Source of the DNA: Gemmatimonadales bacterium
Lineage (GTDB): Bacteria; Gemmatimonadota; Gemmatimonadetes; Gemmatimonadales; GWC2-71-9
Assembly (NCBI GenBank): GCA_041615815.1
Contig: JBFJCP010000005.1
Span: forward strand, 32,001 to 96,000
Length of the DNA: 64,000 nt
Direction of reading: 5' to 3'
Below, in pieces: positions 4,914 to 16,553 of this stretch (position 1 is the stretch's first letter; every line of letters begins with the position of its first letter). The position numbers and the translations under genes were made by a program. Below the pieces are notes generated by a model, which ran no database searches, was not told the origin of the DNA, and saw nothing but the letters and a program-made list of their open reading frames with translations.

Positions 4914-5039
4914 CCAAGGTTTCCCGTTGGTTGAGAAGATGTCGGAGGGGTGGTACGGGGGACAAGAGCGAGTCTGGGAACCGGATTCACCCGTAGCTTG
5001 TTTTTCTGTATTGAATCAGTCCAATGTTTTCGCTTGGGG

Positions 5040-5068
5040 TTGACACAAGGGATTGTGGCAATCACCGT
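5040..5068 (+). promoter_or_regulatory. Putative promoter TTGACA-17-CACCGT overlapped by dyad TTGACACAA-GGGA-TTGTGGCAA
   Basis: Consensus -35; 8/9 inverted repeat; upstream of SD GGAGG 5107-5111. Confidence 0.5.
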
Positions 5069-5115
5069 TACGCTCTCCAACGGTCGCCCTACGCAACTCT
5101 CTTCCTGGAGGCGTG

Positions 5116-5691
5116 ATGCGCATCGAGTCCCGCATCGCCGGTTTCCTCTCCGTGGCCGCGCTGGCACTGACAGCGTGTTCCGGCGGGGAGCAGCAGACGC
5201 AGGCGAATCCCTGTAACCCGTGCGCGGCCGCTGCGACAATCGACGCCGCGCTCATTACGCAAGGCACCAACACGCTGCATACCGAAACGCCCACGGCGCA
5301 GCTCGTGGCCCGGGGCACGGAGTTGTGGAACGACAAGTCGCTCTCCGCGAGCGGTGGCGTCGCCTGCTCCACGTGCCACGTGAACAACTACGCTCAGATG
5401 CAGGCGACGTTTGCCGAGGCCTACCCACACCAGGTGGCCATGGCCAAGCAGCGCGCCGGCCTCGATCAGGTGACGGCGGCCGAAATGGTGCAGCTCTGCG
5501 TGGTCATCCCGATGGGTAGCGAGCCGCTCGCATGGAACTCCGTGGAGCTAGCCGCGCTGACGGCCTACGTCCGGAATATCCAAGGCGGCTTCGACCCGTC
5601 GATGGCCACCGCCAATCCGTGTAATCCATGTGCCGGAAATCCATGTAACCCCTGCGGGGGGAACCCCTGCAATCCGTGTGGGGGTGGGTAG
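5116..5691 (+). CDS. Monoheme c-type cytochrome lipoprotein (TsdA/SoxA-like domain) with N- and C-terminal NPC repeats
   Basis: Lipobox LTAC; CSTCH; MVQLCVVIPMGSEPL..ELAALTAYV; 8 NPC units; SD GGAGG. Confidence 0.8.
   Translation: MRIESRIAGFLSVAALALTACSGGEQQTQANPCNPCAAAATIDAALITQGTNTLHTETPTAQLVARGTELWNDKSLSASGGVACSTCHVNNYAQMQATFAEAYPHQVAMAKQRAGLDQVTAAEMVQLCVVIPMGSEPLAWNSVELAALTAYVRNIQGGFDPSMATANPCNPCAGNPCNPCGGNPCNPCGGG
5611..5688 (+). repeat. Coding tandem repeat ANPCNPC-AG-NPCNPC-GG-NPCNPC-GGG
   Basis: AAYCCNTGY units with synonymous codon variation. Confidence 0.9.
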
Positions 5692-5797
5692 GCAACCACC
5701 TGGGCTCGTGCTGACGATACCGGGGTTGACAGGCCGAGCGAGCGTGGTCAGGGTACTGGCTCGGAAGAAGACTCGATCACCCGTCCTTGGAGGAGCG

Positions 5798-6007
5798 ATG
5801 CGTAGCGCCAAACGGACAGCCTATCTCTTTGCCGCCCTCCTGTTCGCCGTGGGCGCATGCTCAGGTGGCCAGGAGGCTGGCGCCGGTGAGGCGGCCAACC
5901 CCTGTGCGGCCAACCCGTGCGCAGCCAACCCGTGTGCGATGGCTGACTCGATGCCGACGAACCCTTGCGCGGCCAATCCGTGCAACCCCTGCGGTGGGGG
6001 GCACTAG
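5798..6007 (+). CDS. 69-aa Cys-rich lipopeptide with six NPC repeats
   Basis: SD GGAGGAG, ATG 5798, lipobox VGAC, ANPCAANPCAANPC...NPCAANPCNPCGGGH. Confidence 0.8.
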   Translation: MRSAKRTAYLFAALLFAVGACSGGQEAGAGEAANPCAANPCAANPCAMADSMPTNPCAANPCNPCGGGH

Positions 6008-6052
6008 CCGATCGGACGCTGGCGTTGTGGGGTTGATCAGCACGCCCGAGCA

Positions 6053-7288
6053 TTGAGCACGCTGCACCACGTGGCCCGGCGTCGATGCGCCGGGCTGTGT
6101 GTTTCGGTTCTGTTCCTGGTTTCGATCGTCGCGTGCGTTGACCGGGCGGCCGTCGGGCCCGGGGACCAGCGGGTTTTTGCCACGCTGGACGCCTTTGTTG
6201 GCGCCTACTGGGAACGTCCCATTCCGCTCCAGGGCACCCCACCCGACCGTTTTTCCCTCATCGAGGTTTCGTTGAGTCCCAGCGACTGTGGGCGGTGTCA
6301 CATCCCCCAGTACGAGGATTGGCAAACCACGCTCCACGCGGCTGCCTATTCGCCGGGGCTCTCGGGCCAACTCGTCGATCACGAGGCGAGGAATTATGCG
6401 TTTGTCCGGTCGTGTCTTGCGTGCCATGCACCGCTGGGCGAGCAGTCCGCCTGGGTGCCGGACGCCGGCGGGCGACTGGTGCGAAATCCGTCTTTCGATG
6501 CGGCCTTGCAGCAGAAGGGATTGGTGTGCGCCGCGTGCCACCTGCGGGGCTGGCAGAGGTACGGACCCCCGCGACGCGACGGCTCGCTGGATCCGGCACC
6601 GCCCGGAACGGCGCACGCCGGCGCCATCCGCAGCTCGTATTTCGAGGACCCTCGCTTCTGTGGCAGCTGTCACCAGTTTGCACAGCCGGCCCCGAACGGA
6701 AAATCACTCCAAAACACGCTTGTCGAGTGGCAACAGAGCCGGTACGCTCGCGAGGGCATCGTGTGCCAGACGTGCCACATGCCCGATCGGCGCCATCTTT
6801 GGCGAGGGATCCACGACTCCGCCATGGTGGATAGCGGAGTGACGATCCGCTGGATCGAGCCTACCCGGGGCGAGATCGCCCTTCGCGTGACGAATACGGC
6901 CACGGGACACCGCTTCCCCACGTATGTGACCCCCAAGGTGCAAGTCGTCGTGGAGCTCCTGGACACAGCGCGGGTGCCCCTCGCCGGTGCGGTGAGCGAA
7001 GGCGTGATCGGGCGTGCCGTGGTCTCGACGAGTAGTGGCTGGGTGGAACAATGGGATACCCGGCTACCGCCTGACAGCAGCATGGCGGTGTCGGTGCCGC
7101 GGCAGCCCGCCGCACGGTTTGCGCGCGGGCAGGTGCACGTGTTTCCCGATGGTTTTTATAACACCATGTTCGCCGGAATGCTGGCGCGTTCGCTGAGCGA
7201 TACGGCGCGGGTGTTGATCACTGAAGCCCATCGCCGAACCGTCGAGAGCTCGTACCTGTTGTTCGATTCCACGATCGCCCTGCCCTGA
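6053..7288 (+). CDS. Pentaheme c-type cytochrome lipoprotein (c554/c552-like multiheme family); start uncertain (TTG 6053 or GTG 6071)
   Basis: CGRCH, CLACH, CAACH, CGSCH, CQTCH; lipobox IVAC; TNTATGHRFPT C-terminal motif. Confidence 0.85.
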   Translation: MSTLHHVARRRCAGLCVSVLFLVSIVACVDRAAVGPGDQRVFATLDAFVGAYWERPIPLQGTPPDRFSLIEVSLSPSDCGRCHIPQYEDWQTTLHAAAYSPGLSGQLVDHEARNYAFVRSCLACHAPLGEQSAWVPDAGGRLVRNPSFDAALQQKGLVCAACHLRGWQRYGPPRRDGSLDPAPPGTAHAGAIRSSYFEDPRFCGSCHQFAQPAPNGKSLQNTLVEWQQSRYAREGIVCQTCHMPDRRHLWRGIHDSAMVDSGVTIRWIEPTRGEIALRVTNTATGHRFPTYVTPKVQVVVELLDTARVPLAGAVSEGVIGRAVVSTSSGWVEQWDTRLPPDSSMAVSVPRQPAARFARGQVHVFPDGFYNTMFAGMLARSLSDTARVLITEAHRRTVESSYLLFDSTIALP

Positions 7289-8195: not shown

Positions 8196-8338
8196 GAGCA
8201 TGACTCCATTTACGAGATCGGGTCTGGGGCCCCAACATACGCCCTGGCGGACGGGCCGGCCACGGGATCGAGGAGGTGTGACGAATGCCACGGTGGGCCT
8301 CGGATGCCCGGGCTAGCTTGCCGGGCATCGAAGGCACA

Positions 8339-8752
8339 GTGAAGGCGTCCGCCGTCGTGGGCGGGACGGGAATGCTCCTTGTCGGACTGTCCTTGCTCTC
8401 AGCGGGCGCCTGCGGTTCCGATCGTCCGGGGTCTTCCTCGAGAGAGGTGCCTCGGGTGTTGGCCCCGACTCCCGCCGCGTTCGCGCGCGGCGAGTCACTC
8501 TACCTCGCTCACTGCGACCGGTGTCATGGTCACCGGGCCACGGGCTCGGAGATCGGACCGCCGCTGGTGCATTCGACGTACGAGCCCCGCCATCACGCGG
8601 ACGCGGCGTTTGTCTTGGCTGTGCGGAACGGTGTTCGAGCCCACCACTGGCCGTTCGGAGACATGCCGCCGGTCCCTGGGCTCAGCGAGGACGACGTCGC
8701 CTCGATCGTCGCGTATGTCCGATGGCTTCAGCGTGAGGCGGGCATCAACTGA
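8339..8752 (+). CDS. Monoheme cytochrome c lipoprotein with His-His motifs
   Basis: Lipobox AGAC; CDRCH; GPPLVH..YEPRHH; AHHWPFGDMPPV (Met distal ligand candidate). Confidence 0.82.
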   Translation: MKASAVVGGTGMLLVGLSLLSAGACGSDRPGSSSREVPRVLAPTPAAFARGESLYLAHCDRCHGHRATGSEIGPPLVHSTYEPRHHADAAFVLAVRNGVRAHHWPFGDMPPVPGLSEDDVASIVAYVRWLQREAGIN

Positions 8753-8782
8753 CGCGCACCCGTTTGAGCTGAGGAGGTTCTC

Positions 8783-9175
8783 ATGCGTTCACCAACCCGT
8801 GGTCTCATTGCCCTGACGGCGCTCGTGTTCGCCGCGCCGGCGGCCCTGGTGGCACAAGACACCAAGGTTGGGGTGGAAGCAACGCTGGCACAGGATGTCG
8901 TGGACCGGATGCCTGTGGGAGCCGCCACGACGTTCGCCCCCGACGTGGGCAAGGTGTACCTCTGGACCAAGGTCCACGGGGCCGACGGCACCCAGATCTC
9001 GCACGTGTGGATCCACGGATCTCACGAGGCGGTGGTTGAGTTGCCCGTGGGCGGTTCGCCGTGGCGCACTTGGAGCAGCCGCACGATCAATCCGGAGTGG
9101 ACCGGTGAGTGGCGGGTCGAAGTGCGGAACGCCGCTGGTGATGTGCTCGAGACGATCACCTTTACGATTGGGTGA
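8783..9175 (+). CDS. Secreted DUF2914-like beta-sandwich protein
   Basis: Signal peptide; VYLWTKV, HVW, WRTWS, GEWRVEV; SD GAGGAGG. Confidence 0.78.
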   Translation: MRSPTRGLIALTALVFAAPAALVAQDTKVGVEATLAQDVVDRMPVGAATTFAPDVGKVYLWTKVHGADGTQISHVWIHGSHEAVVELPVGGSPWRTWSSRTINPEWTGEWRVEVRNAAGDVLETITFTIG

Positions 9176-11661: not shown

Positions 11662-12018
11662 ATGCTCCGCGAGTACATACCGCTGCTCTTGTTGATCGGA
11701 TTCGTGATTGCCAATGCGGTGGCCATGTTGGCGGTTTCGGTGCTCGTCTCCCCGCAACGGCCCACCGTCGTGAAGGCCACTCCGTACGAGTCGGGCATGC
11801 CCCCGCTCGGTGGCACACGGGAGCGCTTCAGCGTGAAATTCTATCTCGTGGCCATGTTGTTCATCGTGTTCGATATCGAGGCGGTGTTCATGATTCCGTG
11901 GGGGGTCGCGTACCGGCAGCTCGGGCTCTTCGGGCTCGTGGAAATGCTGATCTTCATCCTCATCCTGTTCGTGGGCTACATCTACGCGTGGAAGCGGGGA
12001 GCGCTGGAATGGGATTGA
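11662..12018 (+). CDS. nuoA: NADH-quinone oxidoreductase subunit A
   Basis: [28 protein letters not shown]. Confidence 0.95.
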
Positions 12019-12650
12019 TCGCAAAGAACCCGACCACTTCGGGAGCGCCGGGTGGCGCATCCCGCAACGTGGTATCGCAGGTTTCGCCCAACTGGCTGAC
12101 GACGCGGCTCGATTTTCTGGTCAACTGGGCGCGGGCCAACAGCCTGTGGCCCATGCCGTTCGGCACGGCGTGCTGTGCCATCGAATTCATGGCGACGGCG
12201 GCCGGTCGGTTCGATCTCGCCCGATTTGGCATGGAGCGCATGAGCTTTTCCCCGCGCCAGGCGGACGTCCTCATTTGCGCGGGCCGATTGCCCTTCAAGC
12301 TCGCCCCGGTGATCCGGCGGATCTATGATCAGATGCCTCAGCCCAAATGGGTGATCTCCATGGGCGCGTGCGCGTCCTCCGGTGGGATCTTCGACAATTA
12401 CGCCATGGTGCAGGGGATCGACACCGTGGTGCCTGTGGATGTCTACGTGCCGGGGTGCCCCCCGCGCCCGGAAGGCTTGCTGTACGGCATCCTGTTGCTG
12501 CAGAAGAAGGTCAAGGGCGAAACGCTGCTCGATCCCACCATTCGGGACGAGCATCTCGTCGAGGCCGGTGGCTTGCGAATGCCAGCGCGCCTGGTGGATG
12601 AGCTGTCCGAGCCCTTCGGCAATTCCATTCACCAGACCCGCTCCGCGTAG
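12009..12650 (+). CDS. nuoB: NADH-quinone oxidoreductase subunit B
   Basis: [31 protein letters not shown]. Confidence 0.95.
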
Positions 12651-12656
12651 CACTCG

Positions 12657-13307
12657 GTGAACGCATCCGTCGACGCCCTGCGGCGTCAGTTCGGCGAGGC
12701 CATCCTGCGTGCCTCCGAGTCGTGTGGGACCACCATCGTGCACGTCGCGGGAGGCCGGGCGCGCGAGATCCTGGCCTGGCTCAAAGACACCCCGCAGCAC
12801 GAGTACAACTATCTCGTGGACATCACCGCTGTGGAATATCGTGACCCCGAGCGTGACCTGGAGGTTGTGTATCTGGTGCGCTCTCTCGAGCGACAGACCG
12901 AACTGCGGATCAAGGTCGACCTTCCCAAGACGAATGCACTCGAGGTGGACTCGGTGGTGGGGTTGTGGCGAGGCGCCGATTGGATGGAGCGTGAGGTGTA
13001 CGACATGTTCGGCGTGCAGTTCCGGGGACACCCGGACCTCCGCCGCATCCTGATGTGGGAGACGTACGCCGAGGGCTATCCGCTCCGGAAGGACTTTCCG
13101 CTCCGGGGCCGGTTCTCCCGCTCGGAGCAGGTGCGGCAGGCGCTCAACGCGAATCCCGAAGCGCATTATTCCCTCGAAGAGCTGTCCATCTTCGGTGCCT
13201 ATCACGACCTGCCCATGGACATGCGGGAGCGCTTGGCGCGCGGTGGTCGGGGAGAAATCCCCGAACCTCGCGTCCCGGATGAGGTTGGACCGGACGAGCA
13301 TGAGTAA
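12657..13307 (+). CDS. nuoC: NADH-quinone oxidoreductase subunit C
   Basis: EREVYDMFG, GHPDLRRIL, PLRKDFP. Confidence 0.95.
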   Translation: MNASVDALRRQFGEAILRASESCGTTIVHVAGGRAREILAWLKDTPQHEYNYLVDITAVEYRDPERDLEVVYLVRSLERQTELRIKVDLPKTNALEVDSVVGLWRGADWMEREVYDMFGVQFRGHPDLRRILMWETYAEGYPLRKDFPLRGRFSRSEQVRQALNANPEAHYSLEELSIFGAYHDLPMDMRERLARGGRGEIPEPRVPDEVGPDEHE

Positions 13308-14583
13308 GAAGCGGACCGTCGAATTAGGCGTGGCCACCACCGGGGTGGACGCCCAGGGCCGGGCGGCACGCGTGCCCCTCGGTGTCGTCACGGAGCCACC
13401 GCCGGAGCCGGACTTCAATGCGGAACACATGTTGGTGAACCTCGGCCCGCAGCACCCCGCTACCCACGGGGTCCTACGACTGGTGGTCGAGCTCGACGGC
13501 GAGGTGGTGATCCGGGTCATCCCGCACGTCGGGTATTTGCACTCGGGGTTCGAAAAGCTGGGCGAGTACCGGCATTACAACCAGATCGTCCCGCTCACGG
13601 ATCGAACGGACTACCTGGGGCCCATGGCCAACAATGTCGGTGTGGTGCTGGCGGCGGAAGCATTGATGGGGATCGAGGTCACGGAGCGTTGCAAGGTCCT
13701 GCGGGTCATCGCGTGCGAGATGAGTCGCATCATCTCCCATCTCGTGTGGCTCGGAACGACCGCCATCGACATCGGCGCCTTCACGCCCTTCCTGTGGACG
13801 TTCTACGAACGTGAGCGGATCTACAATCTGCAGGAGATGTGGACCGGAGCCCGTCTTACGACGAGTCTCACCCGGGTAGGGGGGCTGATGGCCGATATCC
13901 CGGACGGGTTCGTGGAGGGGCTCCGAGAGGCCTGCCGGCTACTGCCCAACGTGCTGGATGAGGTGGACCGACTCCTCACACGCAACGCCATTTGGTGCTC
14001 GCGCACGCAGGGGATCGGGGTGCTGACCGGTGAGGAGGCGATCAACTATTCCCTCTCGGGTCCGATGCTTCGGGCCAGCGGCGTAGCGTACGACGTGCGA
14101 AAAGACCGTTCGTACCTGGACTACGAGACCTACGACTTCGACGTTCCGATCGGTGAGCACGGCGATGTCTACGACCGGTATCTCGTTCGACTGGAAGAGA
14201 TCAGGCAATCCGTCCGGATTCTGGAGCAGGCACTCGATCGGTTACCGGATGGTCCCATCAATGTGGACGATCCGCGCGTCATTCTTCCCCCCAAGTCGGC
14301 AGCCATGAACGACATGGAAGCGATGATCTTCCACTTCAAACAGGTCATGGAGGGCGTTCCCGCTCCAGTGGGCGAAGCCTACGTATCGATTGAGAATGGG
14401 AAGGGAGAGCAGGGGAACTACTTCGTGTCCGACGGAACGGCCAAGCCGGTTCGATGGAGGATCCGCCCGCCATCGTTCATCAACCTGGCGGTGCTCCCGA
14501 AGATGTCCGAAGGGCACCTGCTGTCGGATCTCATCGCCATCAATGCCAGTGTGGACATCGTCATGGGCGAAGTGGATCGGTAG
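13300..14583 (+). CDS. nuoD: NADH-quinone oxidoreductase subunit D
   Basis: NLGPQHPATHGVLRL, GYLHSGFEK, DIVMGEVDR. Confidence 0.95.
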   Translation: MSKKRTVELGVATTGVDAQGRAARVPLGVVTEPPPEPDFNAEHMLVNLGPQHPATHGVLRLVVELDGEVVIRVIPHVGYLHSGFEKLGEYRHYNQIVPLTDRTDYLGPMANNVGVVLAAEALMGIEVTERCKVLRVIACEMSRIISHLVWLGTTAIDIGAFTPFLWTFYERERIYNLQEMWTGARLTTSLTRVGGLMADIPDGFVEGLREACRLLPNVLDEVDRLLTRNAIWCSRTQGIGVLTGEEAINYSLSGPMLRASGVAYDVRKDRSYLDYETYDFDVPIGEHGDVYDRYLVRLEEIRQSVRILEQALDRLPDGPINVDDPRVILPPKSAAMNDMEAMIFHFKQVMEGVPAPVGEAYVSIENGKGEQGNYFVSDGTAKPVRWRIRPPSFINLAVLPKMSEGHLLSDLIAINASVDIVMGEVDR

Positions 14584-14596
14584 CCGCGGGACGCCA

Positions 14597-15094
14597 ATGA
14601 CCGTACGCGAGACTACGTACGAGCCGGTCTTCACCGGCGACAGACGCCGCGAGCTGGAGGCGCTCCTGGGACGCTATCCCGTCAAACAAGCGGCTCTGCT
14701 GCCGGCGTTGTGGATGGTGCAGGAGGATCGGGGTTGGATCTCCGACGCGGCCATGGCGGAGGTGGCGGACGTGCTCGATCTGACCCCCGCGTACGTCAAG
14801 GGAGTCGTCACGTTTTACACGATGTACCACCAGCATCCCGTGGGTGAACACTTCGTGCAAGTGTGTACCACGACACCCTGCAACATCTGTGGTGCGGAGG
14901 ACGTGGTCCGAGCCCTGTTGGAACACACGGGTTGTGGGGAGCTCGGGGCCACGTCCCCGGACGGCAAGTTCACCGTGATCGAAGTCGAGTGCCTGGGCGC
15001 GTGCGGTTTTGCCACACCGATTTTGATCGACGACGACTTCATCGAGGACGTGACACCGCAGCAGGTGCCGGCGCTCGTGGCGAAATACCGATGA
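14597..15094 (+). CDS. nuoE: NADH-quinone oxidoreductase subunit E
   Basis: VVTFYTMY, CTTTPC, ECLGAC 2Fe-2S ligands. Confidence 0.93.
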   Translation: MTVRETTYEPVFTGDRRRELEALLGRYPVKQAALLPALWMVQEDRGWISDAAMAEVADVLDLTPAYVKGVVTFYTMYHQHPVGEHFVQVCTTTPCNICGAEDVVRALLEHTGCGELGATSPDGKFTVIEVECLGACGFATPILIDDDFIEDVTPQQVPALVAKYR

Positions 15095-15245
15095 GCACGA
15101 GCCGTTCGAGCCACGACGTGTCCGCCGCTCGGCCCACCCGGGCGTCTGGCGAGGTGCGGCGTGCTTCTCGCGCGGCTGCCCTCTCAACGGCGGGCGGGTG
15201 TGCAGGCGGCCGCCGTCGTCGGGGATCGGGAAGGGAGGAGTCCTA

Positions 15246-16553
15246 GTGGGCTATCCACATGAGCCGCATCCCAACGAAACCCTCGTCCTGAGCGAACACT
15301 TCGGCAACGCGGACGCACGATCGTACGATGGCTGGGTCCGACGGGGCGGGTACCACGCCCTCCAACAAGCGCTCGCGATGGAGCCGGCAGAGATCATCGA
15401 TCAGGTGAAGGCCTCCGGGCTGCGTGGGCGTGGTGGCGCGGGCTTCCCGACGGGACTCAAGTGGTCCTTCATGCCGAAGGAGAAGTCGAAGCCCCACTAT
15501 CTCTGCTGCAACGCCGACGAATCAGAGCCGGGGACATTCAAGGATCGAGAGATCATGCGGTGGACACCGCATCAGCTCATCGAGGGATGCGCCATCGCCC
15601 AATACGCCATCCAGGCGGAGATCACGTACATCTATATTCGTGGCGAGTTCACCGAGCCTCTGGCCATCATGCAGGCTGCGCTCGACGAGGCGTATGACCG
15701 GGGCGTGCTCGGCGCCAATGCCATGGGCACTGGCACGCGCATCGACATGTACATCCATCGCGGTGCGGGGGCGTACATCTGCGGAGAGGAAACCGCCCTC
15801 ATGAACTCCATTGAGGGCAAACGGGGGAACCCACGGGTCAAACCACCGTTCCCCGCTGCGTACGGTGTGTTCGGCATGCCCACCACGATCAACAACGTGG
15901 AGACCCTGGCCGCCGTGCCGCATATCCTCAACCGGGGCCCCGAGTGGTACAAACAACTCTCACGCTCGAGTCCGAAGAGCACGGGCACCAAGCTGCTCAG
16001 CGTGTGCGGGCACGTCCGGAAGCCCGGGAACTACGAGTTGGAGATGGGCTTTCCGCTCCGTGAGCTGATTTACGAGCTGTGTGGGGGTATGCGCGACGGG
16101 CGCACGCTCAAGGCGTGCATTCCCGGCGGTTCTTCGGTCCCGATCCTCGACCGGGACGAGTCCGAGGGTTGTTTGTTGGACTACGAGGGAGTGGTGGATG
16201 CCGGGTCGATGCTGGGCTCCGGCGGCGTGATCGTCTTCGACGATAGCGCGGACATGGTCTATCAGATCATGCGTCTGGCGCGGTTCTATGCTCACGAGTC
16301 GTGCGCGCAGTGTACCCAATGCCGGGAGGGGACCGCGTGGACCGTGCGCATCCTGGAGCGGATTCTGGCCGGGGAGGGGGAAATGCGGGATCTGGATCTC
16401 TTGCTCGACCTCGCGGAGCAGATGACCGGCCGCACCATTTGCGTCCTGAGTGATTCCTGCGCTGCCCCCGTCGTGAGCGGTATCAAGAAATTCCGGAGTG
16501 AGTTCGAGGCCTACATCCAGGGCGCCCGGCGCCCGGCGCTGGCGGTCGTGTAG
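15246..16553 (+). CDS. nuoF: NADH-quinone oxidoreductase subunit F
   Basis: GLRGRGGAGFPTG, NADESEPG, YICGEET, SCAQCTQCREG; SD GGGAGGAG. Confidence 0.95.
   Translation: MGYPHEPHPNETLVLSEHFGNADARSYDGWVRRGGYHALQQALAMEPAEIIDQVKASGLRGRGGAGFPTGLKWSFMPKEKSKPHYLCCNADESEPGTFKDREIMRWTPHQLIEGCAIAQYAIQAEITYIYIRGEFTEPLAIMQAALDEAYDRGVLGANAMGTGTRIDMYIHRGAGAYICGEETALMNSIEGKRGNPRVKPPFPAAYGVFGMPTTINNVETLAAVPHILNRGPEWYKQLSRSSPKSTGTKLLSVCGHVRKPGNYELEMGFPLRELIYELCGGMRDGRTLKACIPGGSSVPILDRDESEGCLLDYEGVVDAGSMLGSGGVIVFDDSADMVYQIMRLARFYAHESCAQCTQCREGTAWTVRILERILAGEGEMRDLDLLLDLAEQMTGRTICVLSDSCAAPVVSGIKKFRSEFEAYIQGARRPALAVV

Follow-up and report, generated by a model that had tools for sequence, protein, structure and literature searches.

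A possible periplasmic thiol buffer of Asn-Pro-Cys arms and two cytochromes in Gemmatimonadota

What might exported proteins with runs of Asn-Pro-Cys (NPC) do beside two c-type cytochromes? The question is raised by three adjacent genes, here called g1, g2 and g3, in a 64,000-nucleotide stretch of DNA (the window) from a Gemmatimonadales bacterium (assembly GCA_041615815.1, contig JBFJCP010000005.1, positions 32,001 to 96,000 of the forward strand). As a preliminary description of the locus had stated, and as our check of the open reading frames (ORFs) agrees, g1 encodes a monohaem cytochrome with eight NPC units, g2 a 69-aa lipopeptide with six units and g3 a pentahaem cytochrome (Table 1). 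We tentatively propose, with somewhat less than even confidence, that g1-g2-g3 form a rechargeable periplasmic thiol shield or buffer that would be recycled at a haem ligated by Cys, while g3 would act as its electron partner. New here are four observations: g3 tracks armed versus armless forms of g1, catalytic residues are lost in both cytochromes, relocated g3 genes have promoter copies of their own, and g3 and the protein family DUF6969 nearly exclude each other.

The Asn-Pro-Cys arm and its genomic partners

The 14 units of g1 and g2 use AAT and AAC, all four Pro codons, and TGT and TGC, and codons are likewise mixed across 75 related ORFs (AAC 468, AAT 363; TGC 605, TGT 226). These mixed synonymous codons, here and in relatives, rule out an artefact of DNA slippage and uphold the earlier view that selection acts on the peptide. 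Also as described before, adjoining units make CxxC pairs, which take in 10 of the 14 arm cysteines, and the two proteins share their ends (NPCNPCGGG in g1, NPCNPCGGGH in g2). Chance would give ∼0.003 NPC per 260 aa; among 3600 crude ORF calls in this genome, 3589 have none, nine have one and only g1 and g2 have more, and a six-frame scan of the 4.19 Mb genome found the repeat at the g1-g2 locus only. The exact NPCNPC pattern is present in three of 61 own and related genomes, all from one genus, so the module is patchy. Its nearest named relatives are Gemmatimonadota.

All 120 top homologues of g1 carry at least two NPC units, with the caveat that the query itself held repeats. When a core-only first sequence was used as query, 71 of 76 genome loci were armed (a g1 homologue with an NPC arm) and five were armless (without one), all five labelled Pseudomonadota or families thereof. 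Searches with g2 and a metagenome repeat scan also showed that cytochrome P460, YceI, YHS, sulfocyanin and class I cytochrome domains can bear NPC arms and that some exported peptides consist of such an arm alone; on this sequence evidence, the arm is a portable module. QPC, DPC, SPC and KPC variants occur, indicating that Pro-Cys is the constant part. Of the 1481 repeat units in homologues, 489 are CNPC. In 115 of 120 homologues the C-terminus comes within six residues of the last Cys, and GG follows that Cys in 39 of the 120; internal units are followed by GG in 117 of 1364 cases. Met accounts for 0.6% of arm residues in g1 homologues; g2 holds one internal Met, and some g2 relatives are Met-rich. 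Pfam and NCBIfam searches with g2 gave no match, and Pfam Cornifin matches were rejected as compositional and below cut-off. A loose NPC-doublet DNA pattern, applied to 401 Pseudomonadota genomes, was too noisy for counting (160 matches, many out of frame).

The full set of three genes is seldom seen. Of 76 loci, just two have a g2-like gene near g1 (L014 and, across an assembly gap, L084), and a further locus (L074) has a second armed cytochrome in its place; peptide, monohaem and pentahaem cytochromes occur together in metagenome loci L098, L119 and L148. In one same-genus genome (L014/L264), QPC replaces NPC both in the N-terminal arm of g1 and in g2, a joint change that suggests gene conversion or co-evolution of paralogues.

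The arm and g3 go together: g3 was found in 60 of 70 armed-g1 genomes versus one of five armless ones, the latter as a partial, weaker match. Within the g1 flanks fetched (up to 8 kb, many loci being shorter), g3 was present in 29 of 76 loci: on the same strand downstream in 14 Gemmatimonadota, on the same strand upstream in one and convergent in 14 from other groups. Among the remaining 46 genomes, 31 of the 41 armed ones carry g3 elsewhere (E ≤ 1e-105). A sample of 251 genomes from the same phylum held a close g3 in exactly the five with an armed g1, this genome included; three with an armless g1 lack g3 and instead have an adjoining class I cytochrome, and seven others gave distant matches only. 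Among 181 genomes from another sampled phylum (that of genome G062), all eight with an armed g1 have a close g3, adjacent in seven; two more have a close g3 (one of them with a long NPC array elsewhere) and 25 a more distant one. The repeats thus co-occur with these cytochromes in other genomes and across phyla, the point on which the preliminary description had made its proposal depend. In six of 23 loci where g3 is relocated, an arm-only lipopeptide lies directly 5' of g3 without g1, and some such peptides have Met/Asp-rich spacers. In L407, L421 and L422 (genomes G713, G690 and G683), lipopeptides before the pentahaem gene have acidic Met-rich repeats that largely replace NPC; these might bridge Cys-type peptides and Met-type peptides like MrpX, discussed below.

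A second partner, DUF6969, is the commonest neighbour of metagenome NPC loci (26 of 120); an FGE-family gene is present in 13 and a YeeE-type sulfur-transport gene in 10 of the 120. Only L098 has both the pentahaem cytochrome and DUF6969. A search without positive control found no pentahaem cytochrome in five DUF6969 genomes, and DUF6969 was absent from 45 of 45 armed genomes of this clade (50 of 75 genomes searched). It was not found in this genome either, where the search control gave no match, the same model having found 14 of 401 elsewhere. This near-exclusion suggests two flavours of system. In L240-L253 and metagenome L093-L169, DUF6969, a His-rich protein with YYYHAH and HGHFH motifs, often adjoins xPC-repeat peptides, with the KPC variant in L246. 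No paper on DUF6969 was found.

Folds and lost residues of the two cytochromes

The core of g1 matches PF21342 (SoxA-TsdA_cyt-c) at 33.3 bits against a cut-off of 27 (E = 4.8e-8), and its structural model (predicted local distance difference test, pLDDT, 93.6) has SoxA, TsdA and the hydrazine synthase gamma subunit as best fold matches. VIA gave Z 8.8 with a root mean square deviation (rmsd) of 3.9 over 97 residues to 1h31 and Z 7.9 with an rmsd of 2.9 over 97 to 4v2k, and the top ten Foldseek matches were all TsdA or SoxA (E 0.02-0.06); Z values of 7-9 are middling and the Foldseek E values lie above 0.001, but sequence and fold agree nonetheless. Cys128 of g1 aligns with the haem cysteine of SoxA ('INACR'). 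In TsdA, according to the part of PMC4423706 drawn on here, Arg119, four residues before Cys123, is invariant and binds thiosulfate, and Ser127 is invariant too. The Arg site is Met in all 119 of the 120 g1 homologues in which the motif was found, and the Ser127 site (Cys+4) is Pro in 117 and Ala in two. With a conserved Cys128 but Met and Pro at these sites, g1 probably has a His/Cys haem and is neither TsdA nor SoxA. Membership was rejected for both families on the Met replacement, for TsdA also on the lost Ser and the single CxxCH, and for SoxA on the score against its equivalog TIGR04484 (29 bits, cut-off 110). The Cys-ligated haem that had been suggested earlier is very probable, given the modelled SoxA/TsdA fold and the invariant Cys128, from which we infer the ligation itself.

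Thus g1 resembles SoxA and TsdA (PDB 1h31, 4v2k, 5lo9) in its core fold, in a CxxCH with an aligned distal Cys and, by the reading proposed here, in the use of a second haem protein. Unlike them, it has one haem, bears its own poly-Cys arms, is a predicted lipoprotein and shares ∼20% identity, and no sox genes are present among the g1 neighbours scanned. The phylum of G062 also contains a separate armless group of SoxA-like monohaem proteins that end in GKH, some fused to a longer N-terminal domain (L275-L280).

Single-sequence PDB searches gave nothing significant; only profiles and folds gave matches. A profile of 50 g3 homologues matched c552 of Thermochromatium tepidum (5ze8, E = 1.9e-15) and MccSep (9wt9, E = 4.5e-9), and the model (pLDDT 91.5) had a single significant Foldseek match, again 5ze8 (E = 1.7e-13, template modelling score 0.58). 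The polysulfide reductase MccSep/ExtKL of Geobacter sulfurreducens (PDB 9wt8/9wt9) and c552 share with g3 five CxxCH motifs and a haem cap plus beta-sandwich. MccSep has four bis-His haems, a haem 2 ligated by His and Cys239, and a catalytic Sec325, as given in the portion of bioRxiv 10.1101/2025.11.18.688581 used here. The g3 clade differs at both sites: a hidden Markov model alignment, not a superposition, places Gln (30 of 50) or Glu (20) at Cys239, followed by invariant Asn and Thr, and Val (46 of 50) or Ala (four) at Sec325, beside an invariant Tyr. Non-haem Cys after residue 40 is lacking in 108 of 120 homologues; g3 has no in-frame TGA and scores 38.2 bits against a cut-off of 250 on NF040886. 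As Cys239 and Sec325 are both replaced and the score is far under cut-off, g3 was rejected as a true MccSep/ExtKL. It also differs from MccSep and c552 in its link to NPC arms and to an extracytoplasmic function (ECF) sigma promoter motif.

Because the Cys ligand of haem 2 is replaced by Gln/Glu in g3, haem 2 may be open. The pentahaem protein had been described as an electron wire; its place as a conserved companion across phyla stands, but 'wire' may undersell a cytochrome whose haem-2 site has lost its Cys ligand. A predicted complex of g3 with mature g1 scored 0.01 against a mark of 0.32 with controls not folded, and speaks neither for nor against an interaction. Each part of the module has a distant known relative, and all membership tests for characterised enzymes fail, at sequence level, on a defining residue. 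Of the three consecutive plus-strand lipoproteins announced by the preliminary description, g1 and g2 hold, each with a lipobox at Cys21. The start codon and lipidation of g3 are less certain: it has 411 aa from TTG, an alternative start GTG at 6071 and a lipobox-like IVAC at 25-28.

Table 1. Features of the g1-g2-g3 locus, in window coordinates
Feature	Position	Strand	Description
Predicted ECF-sigma promoter GGAAC-N18-GTT (SigH/SigE/SigR type)	4977-5002	+	From sequence; conserved upstream of g1
TTGACA-N17-CACCGT	5040-5068	+	Possible weak housekeeping promoter; similar element in two same-genus genomes
g1	5116-5691	+	191 aa; predicted lipoprotein; SoxA/TsdA-like cytochrome c with one haem, flanked by NPC arms (two units before, six after the haem domain)
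g1 N-terminal arm	5206-5223	+	Two NPC units, one CxxC
g1 haem-binding motif CSTCH (84-88)	5365-5379	+	Invariant in 50/50 aligned
g1 Met124-Cys128	5485-5499	+	Cys128 predicted distal haem ligand; Met124 at invariant Arg site of TsdA/SoxA; both invariant in 50/50
g1 C-terminal arm	5614-5679	+	Six NPC units, three CxxC, then GGG-stop
TTGACA-N17-CAGGGT before g2	5726-5754	+	Possible weak promoter, from sequence
g2	5798-6007	+	69-aa predicted lipopeptide, arm only, six NPC units
g3	6053-7288	+	Pentahaem cytochrome c with five CxxCH, c552/MccSep fold (haem domain and beta-sandwich), without conserved non-haem Cys
g3 Gln220-Asn221-Thr222	6710-6718	+	Gln/Glu at MccSep haem-2 ligand Cys239; alignment to 9wt9
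g3 Tyr291-Val292	6923-6928	+	Invariant Tyr, then Val/Ala at MccSep Sec325

A shared promoter motif and its predicted regulon

An unbiased dyad count 5' of 65 loci yielded GGAAC with GTT. Of 40 Gemmatimonadota loci, the window included, 32 have GGAAC-N18-GTT at most 450 bases 5' of the first arm, compared with six of 1623 background windows; a further 10 loci were not scorable. Where g3 is relocated, it has a copy of the motif before it in 15 of 20 cases and in two of three more. The consensus GGAAC/GTT is that of actinobacterial SigH/SigE, according to the part of PMC10012870 consulted. In a matrix scan of this genome, six of the eight intergenic sites of at least 15.5 bits lead to redox-type units, namely DUF3179, a secreted Cys protein with a TlpA/ResA-like protein, CcdA, an RclA-like reductase, g1, and MOSC with MsrB; the other two precede a TPR protein and no called gene. 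In a second genome (G002), six candidates from this genome recur among 30 of 44 sites examined. A third (G499) has 13 sites versus none in the reversed control; the genes behind them include those for MsrP and thioredoxin, which exceed their cut-offs, and peroxiredoxin-like and TrxB-like genes, which do not, as well as a kinase, a dehalogenase and unassigned genes. This genome has 25 sigma region-4 matches, among them a SigH-like ECF sigma gene followed by an RsrA-like zinc anti-sigma gene (contig C6, ∼116569; L340:1184-2103, minus strand), and we infer a SigH/SigR-like candidate as the factor that reads the motif. Motif and predicted regulon, which the preliminary description had not noted, point first to thiol-oxidative stress; its own suggestions, arms that would bind soft metals or carry sulfane sulfur or selenium, are treated below as alternatives.

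In other phyla, g1 neighbours include DUF3179, MsrP/MsrQ, NrsF with an ECF sigma, rhodanese and AhpD-like genes. DUF3179, which adjoins g1 in nine of 76 loci, is listed as a UxxC/T selenoprotein family in the part of PMC9312934 drawn on. In Entotheonella, an AhpC/TSA-family gene is split in two just 5' of the armed cytochrome (L082:6722-6979, L084:232-795, L088:6711-6962). Several further motif sites were seen in this genome. A near-palindromic double ECF motif separates a cupredoxin gene from a divergent pyridine nucleotide-disulfide oxidoreductase gene (C11:30251-30284). A strong motif belongs to a small secreted Cys protein without Pfam match (C29:20613-21044; L323:4614-5045, minus strand), for which the motif is also present in G002; a TlpA/ResA-like gene follows and a DUF3179 gene is near. 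A weak motif accompanies a radical SAM gene like the tetraether lipid synthase Tes (below cut-off; C1:110936-112813), and a similar gene lies near g1 in L050.

At the locus itself, position 5040, from which the module had been said to start, is a TTGACA hexamer, not a gene start. Elements of the form CAnnnT at spacing 17 are mildly enriched (12 versus 1-10 at other spacings), and a sigma-70 and terminator scan called no promoter, including at 5040-5068; it gave a terminator-like hairpin at 6068-6101, within the start of g3, with two sites versus 1.5 expected. The three genes form a plus-strand island between neighbours on the opposite strand: a GNAT gene and an enolase-family gene upstream, and an SMP-30/gluconolactonase-like gene downstream. 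Just 3' of the module, a class I cytochrome c lipoprotein and a DUF2914 protein are encoded (8285-9175); DUF2914 is also near g1 in L014 and L064. The start of an NADH dehydrogenase (nuo-like) operon was recognised at 11662-16553 from ORF translations alone.

A possible thiol buffer and its alternatives

How could these parts work together? In the proposed buffer, thiol stress would free a SigH/SigR-like sigma from its RsrA-like anti-sigma and so induce the module. Arm cysteines would be sacrificially oxidised, or persulfidated, by oxidants or reactive sulfur outside the inner membrane. An arm would then reach Cys128 of g1 as the SoxY arm reaches SoxA, and the His/Cys haem of g1 would exchange S-S bonds; the Met at the thiosulfate-binding Arg site makes a peptide, not a free anion, the likely substrate. 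As g1 has one haem and the TsdA haem pair is a two-electron acceptor needed for S-S synthesis (in the part of PMC4423706 drawn on), g3 would supply the second haem capacity for two-electron S-S chemistry. A line of CcdA, TlpA and DUF3179, predicted to be co-regulated, could provide reductant. Electrons could run in either direction, and haem 2 of g3 might act on the arms directly. A precedent is MrpX with YedY/MsrP under SigF/NrsF in Azospira suillum, where an exported peptide rich in a sulfur amino acid is sacrificially oxidised and recycled under stress-sigma control, according to the portion of PMC4436054 used; by analogy, the NPC module likely has the same working principle. MsrP and NrsF are near NPC genes, or share their motif, elsewhere, and some arm-only peptides before g3 resemble a sacrificial scavenger in their high Met and Asp content. 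Unlike MrpX, the NPC proteins are rich in Cys, not Met, work with haem proteins instead of a molybdoenzyme and are predicted to be membrane-anchored.

Several points weigh against the buffer. The motif precedes just two of 27 non-Gemmatimonadota loci, and GGAAC/GTT is also read by envelope-stress SigE, according to the same part of PMC10012870. Genome-wide, the 35 copies of GGGAAC-N18-GTT do not stand out from the 18-44 seen at other spacings, which leaves position, a matrix trained on these loci and a threshold chosen post hoc as the basis of the regulon; gene calling in the scan was crude. The best models for the sigma and anti-sigma, SigH_actino and antisig_RsrA, are both under cut-off (178 versus 251.55 and 62.1 versus 62.5), and the GGAAC...GTT look-alike before the sigma gene has a 16-base spacer. 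Ten of the 41 armed genomes in the 46-genome search lack g3 in their incomplete assemblies. The genomes compared are related, not independent, the assemblies incomplete and the samples partly overlapping (three of the five positives among the 251 genomes recur, with identical coordinates, in the 46-genome search), and we claim no statistic for co-occurrence. A Cys-less haem-2 site is also present in more distant pentahaems of genomes without an armed g1. Members of the predicted regulon further include a cupredoxin and a MerA/RclA-like enzyme.

Instead of buffering, the arms could be multivalent, SoxY-like sulfane-sulfur carriers that bring polysulfide or persulfide to the g1 haem or to g3 for oxidation or reduction, in the boldest form with an arm cysteine replacing the Cys/Sec that g3 has lost. 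We consider this unlikely. In its favour, S-S bonds are what the nearest relatives of either cytochrome work on, the C-terminal Cys followed by GG (39 of 120) recalls SoxY, which ends in GGCGG, and rhodanese neighbours occur in three scanned loci and the YeeE-type gene in the 10 metagenome loci noted above. However, the TsdA thiosulfate Arg and Ser are Met and Pro in g1, the MccSep Cys239 and Sec325 are absent from g3 and likewise from pentahaems without an NPC partner, neither sox nor sulfur-respiration genes are found among the neighbours scanned, and the promoter context is one of general thiol stress.

A soft-metal sponge, in which the arms would act like a periplasmic metallothionein towards Cu(I), Ag(I), Hg(II) or Cd and the cytochromes would set the redox state of the metal or the thiols, seems improbable to us. 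Cys- and Met-rich peptides bind Cu(I), and thiol-reactive metals also trigger zinc anti-sigma systems. With this chemistry and the cupredoxin and MerA/RclA-like genes in the regulon, a metal role fits too, and this counts against the buffer. The CxxC density (489 CNPC of 1481 units), Met-rich variants of the peptide, arms fused to a sulfocyanin domain, and a motif-bearing cupredoxin in this genome and in G002, with a similar protein in G499, agree with it. Yet the scanned recurring neighbours include no copper ATPase, CueR/MerR regulator or multicopper oxidase, thiols left unprotected in the periplasm would become oxidised, and a sponge does not account for the tight association with a haem that is Cys-ligated and sits in a sulfur-enzyme fold.

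The arms might also be structural: disulfides between molecules would join the lipoproteins into a mesh or tether in the envelope, a role proposed for the cysteine motifs of CdeC from the Clostridioides difficile exosporium, the only NPC-repeat protein that literature searches returned. We give this reading little credence. CdeC has a six-NPC repeat and redox-sensitive self-assembly, but the part of PMC7677010 drawn on calls the relevance of its cysteines and repeats unknown and describes a spore structural protein, with no mention of a haem partner; its likeness to the arms is probably convergent. An arm carried by P460, YceI, YHS, sulfocyanin and class I cytochromes could be a clustering tag, but a tag alone does not predict thiol-stress co-regulation, and armless g1 homologues exist, without g3. 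Least probable, and then only barely, is a ribosomally synthesized and post-translationally modified peptide in which an MNIO, DUF6969 or FGE-like enzyme would alter the arm cysteines. Bufferins and oxazolins are of this kind: exported Cys peptides, modified by an MNIO, with a signal peptide, a repeated Cys motif and stress-sigma control. Signal peptide, repeated Cys cores and the DUF6969 and FGE-family neighbours of metagenome NPC loci recall such systems, but the arms here are fused to cytochromes. An MNIO form and a DUF6969 form were rejected for this locus, the former because no MNIO (PF05114) was found in this 95.7% complete genome with a positive control (two of five other genomes tested have it), the latter because DUF6969 was found neither in this genome nor in any of 45 armed genomes of its clade.

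A more speculative view, which we hold to be doubtful, is that of a split sulfur enzyme: the g3 clade would have lost its Cys/Sec and g1 its anion pocket, and the reactive Cys would arrive on a tethered, multivalent arm. If the split enzyme were real, itself a slim prospect, it would amount to a haem-recycled, encoded polythiol pool in the periplasm, an extracytoplasmic counterpart of glutathione. With as little assurance, the pentahaem cytochrome could serve such a pool in Gemmatimonadota and Myxococcota, whereas DUF6969 could do so in Pseudomonadota.

Our search, confined to open-access literature, found no description of an arm-cytochrome system and, as the preliminary description had supposed, no characterised family for the NPC repeat. 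The periplasm is oxidising and, to our knowledge, has no known general thiol buffer. If the proposal is true, this widespread and portable poly-cysteine arm, coupled to multihaem and Cys-ligated cytochromes, would bring a new kind of periplasmic defence or sulfur chemistry. Two large cytochrome groups without a name (739 and 2191 hits) would gain a role, DUF3179 and DUF6969 a lead, and Gemmatimonadota would be predicted to have a SigH/SigR-like thiol-stress regulon; as its parts are small and soluble, the idea is directly testable.

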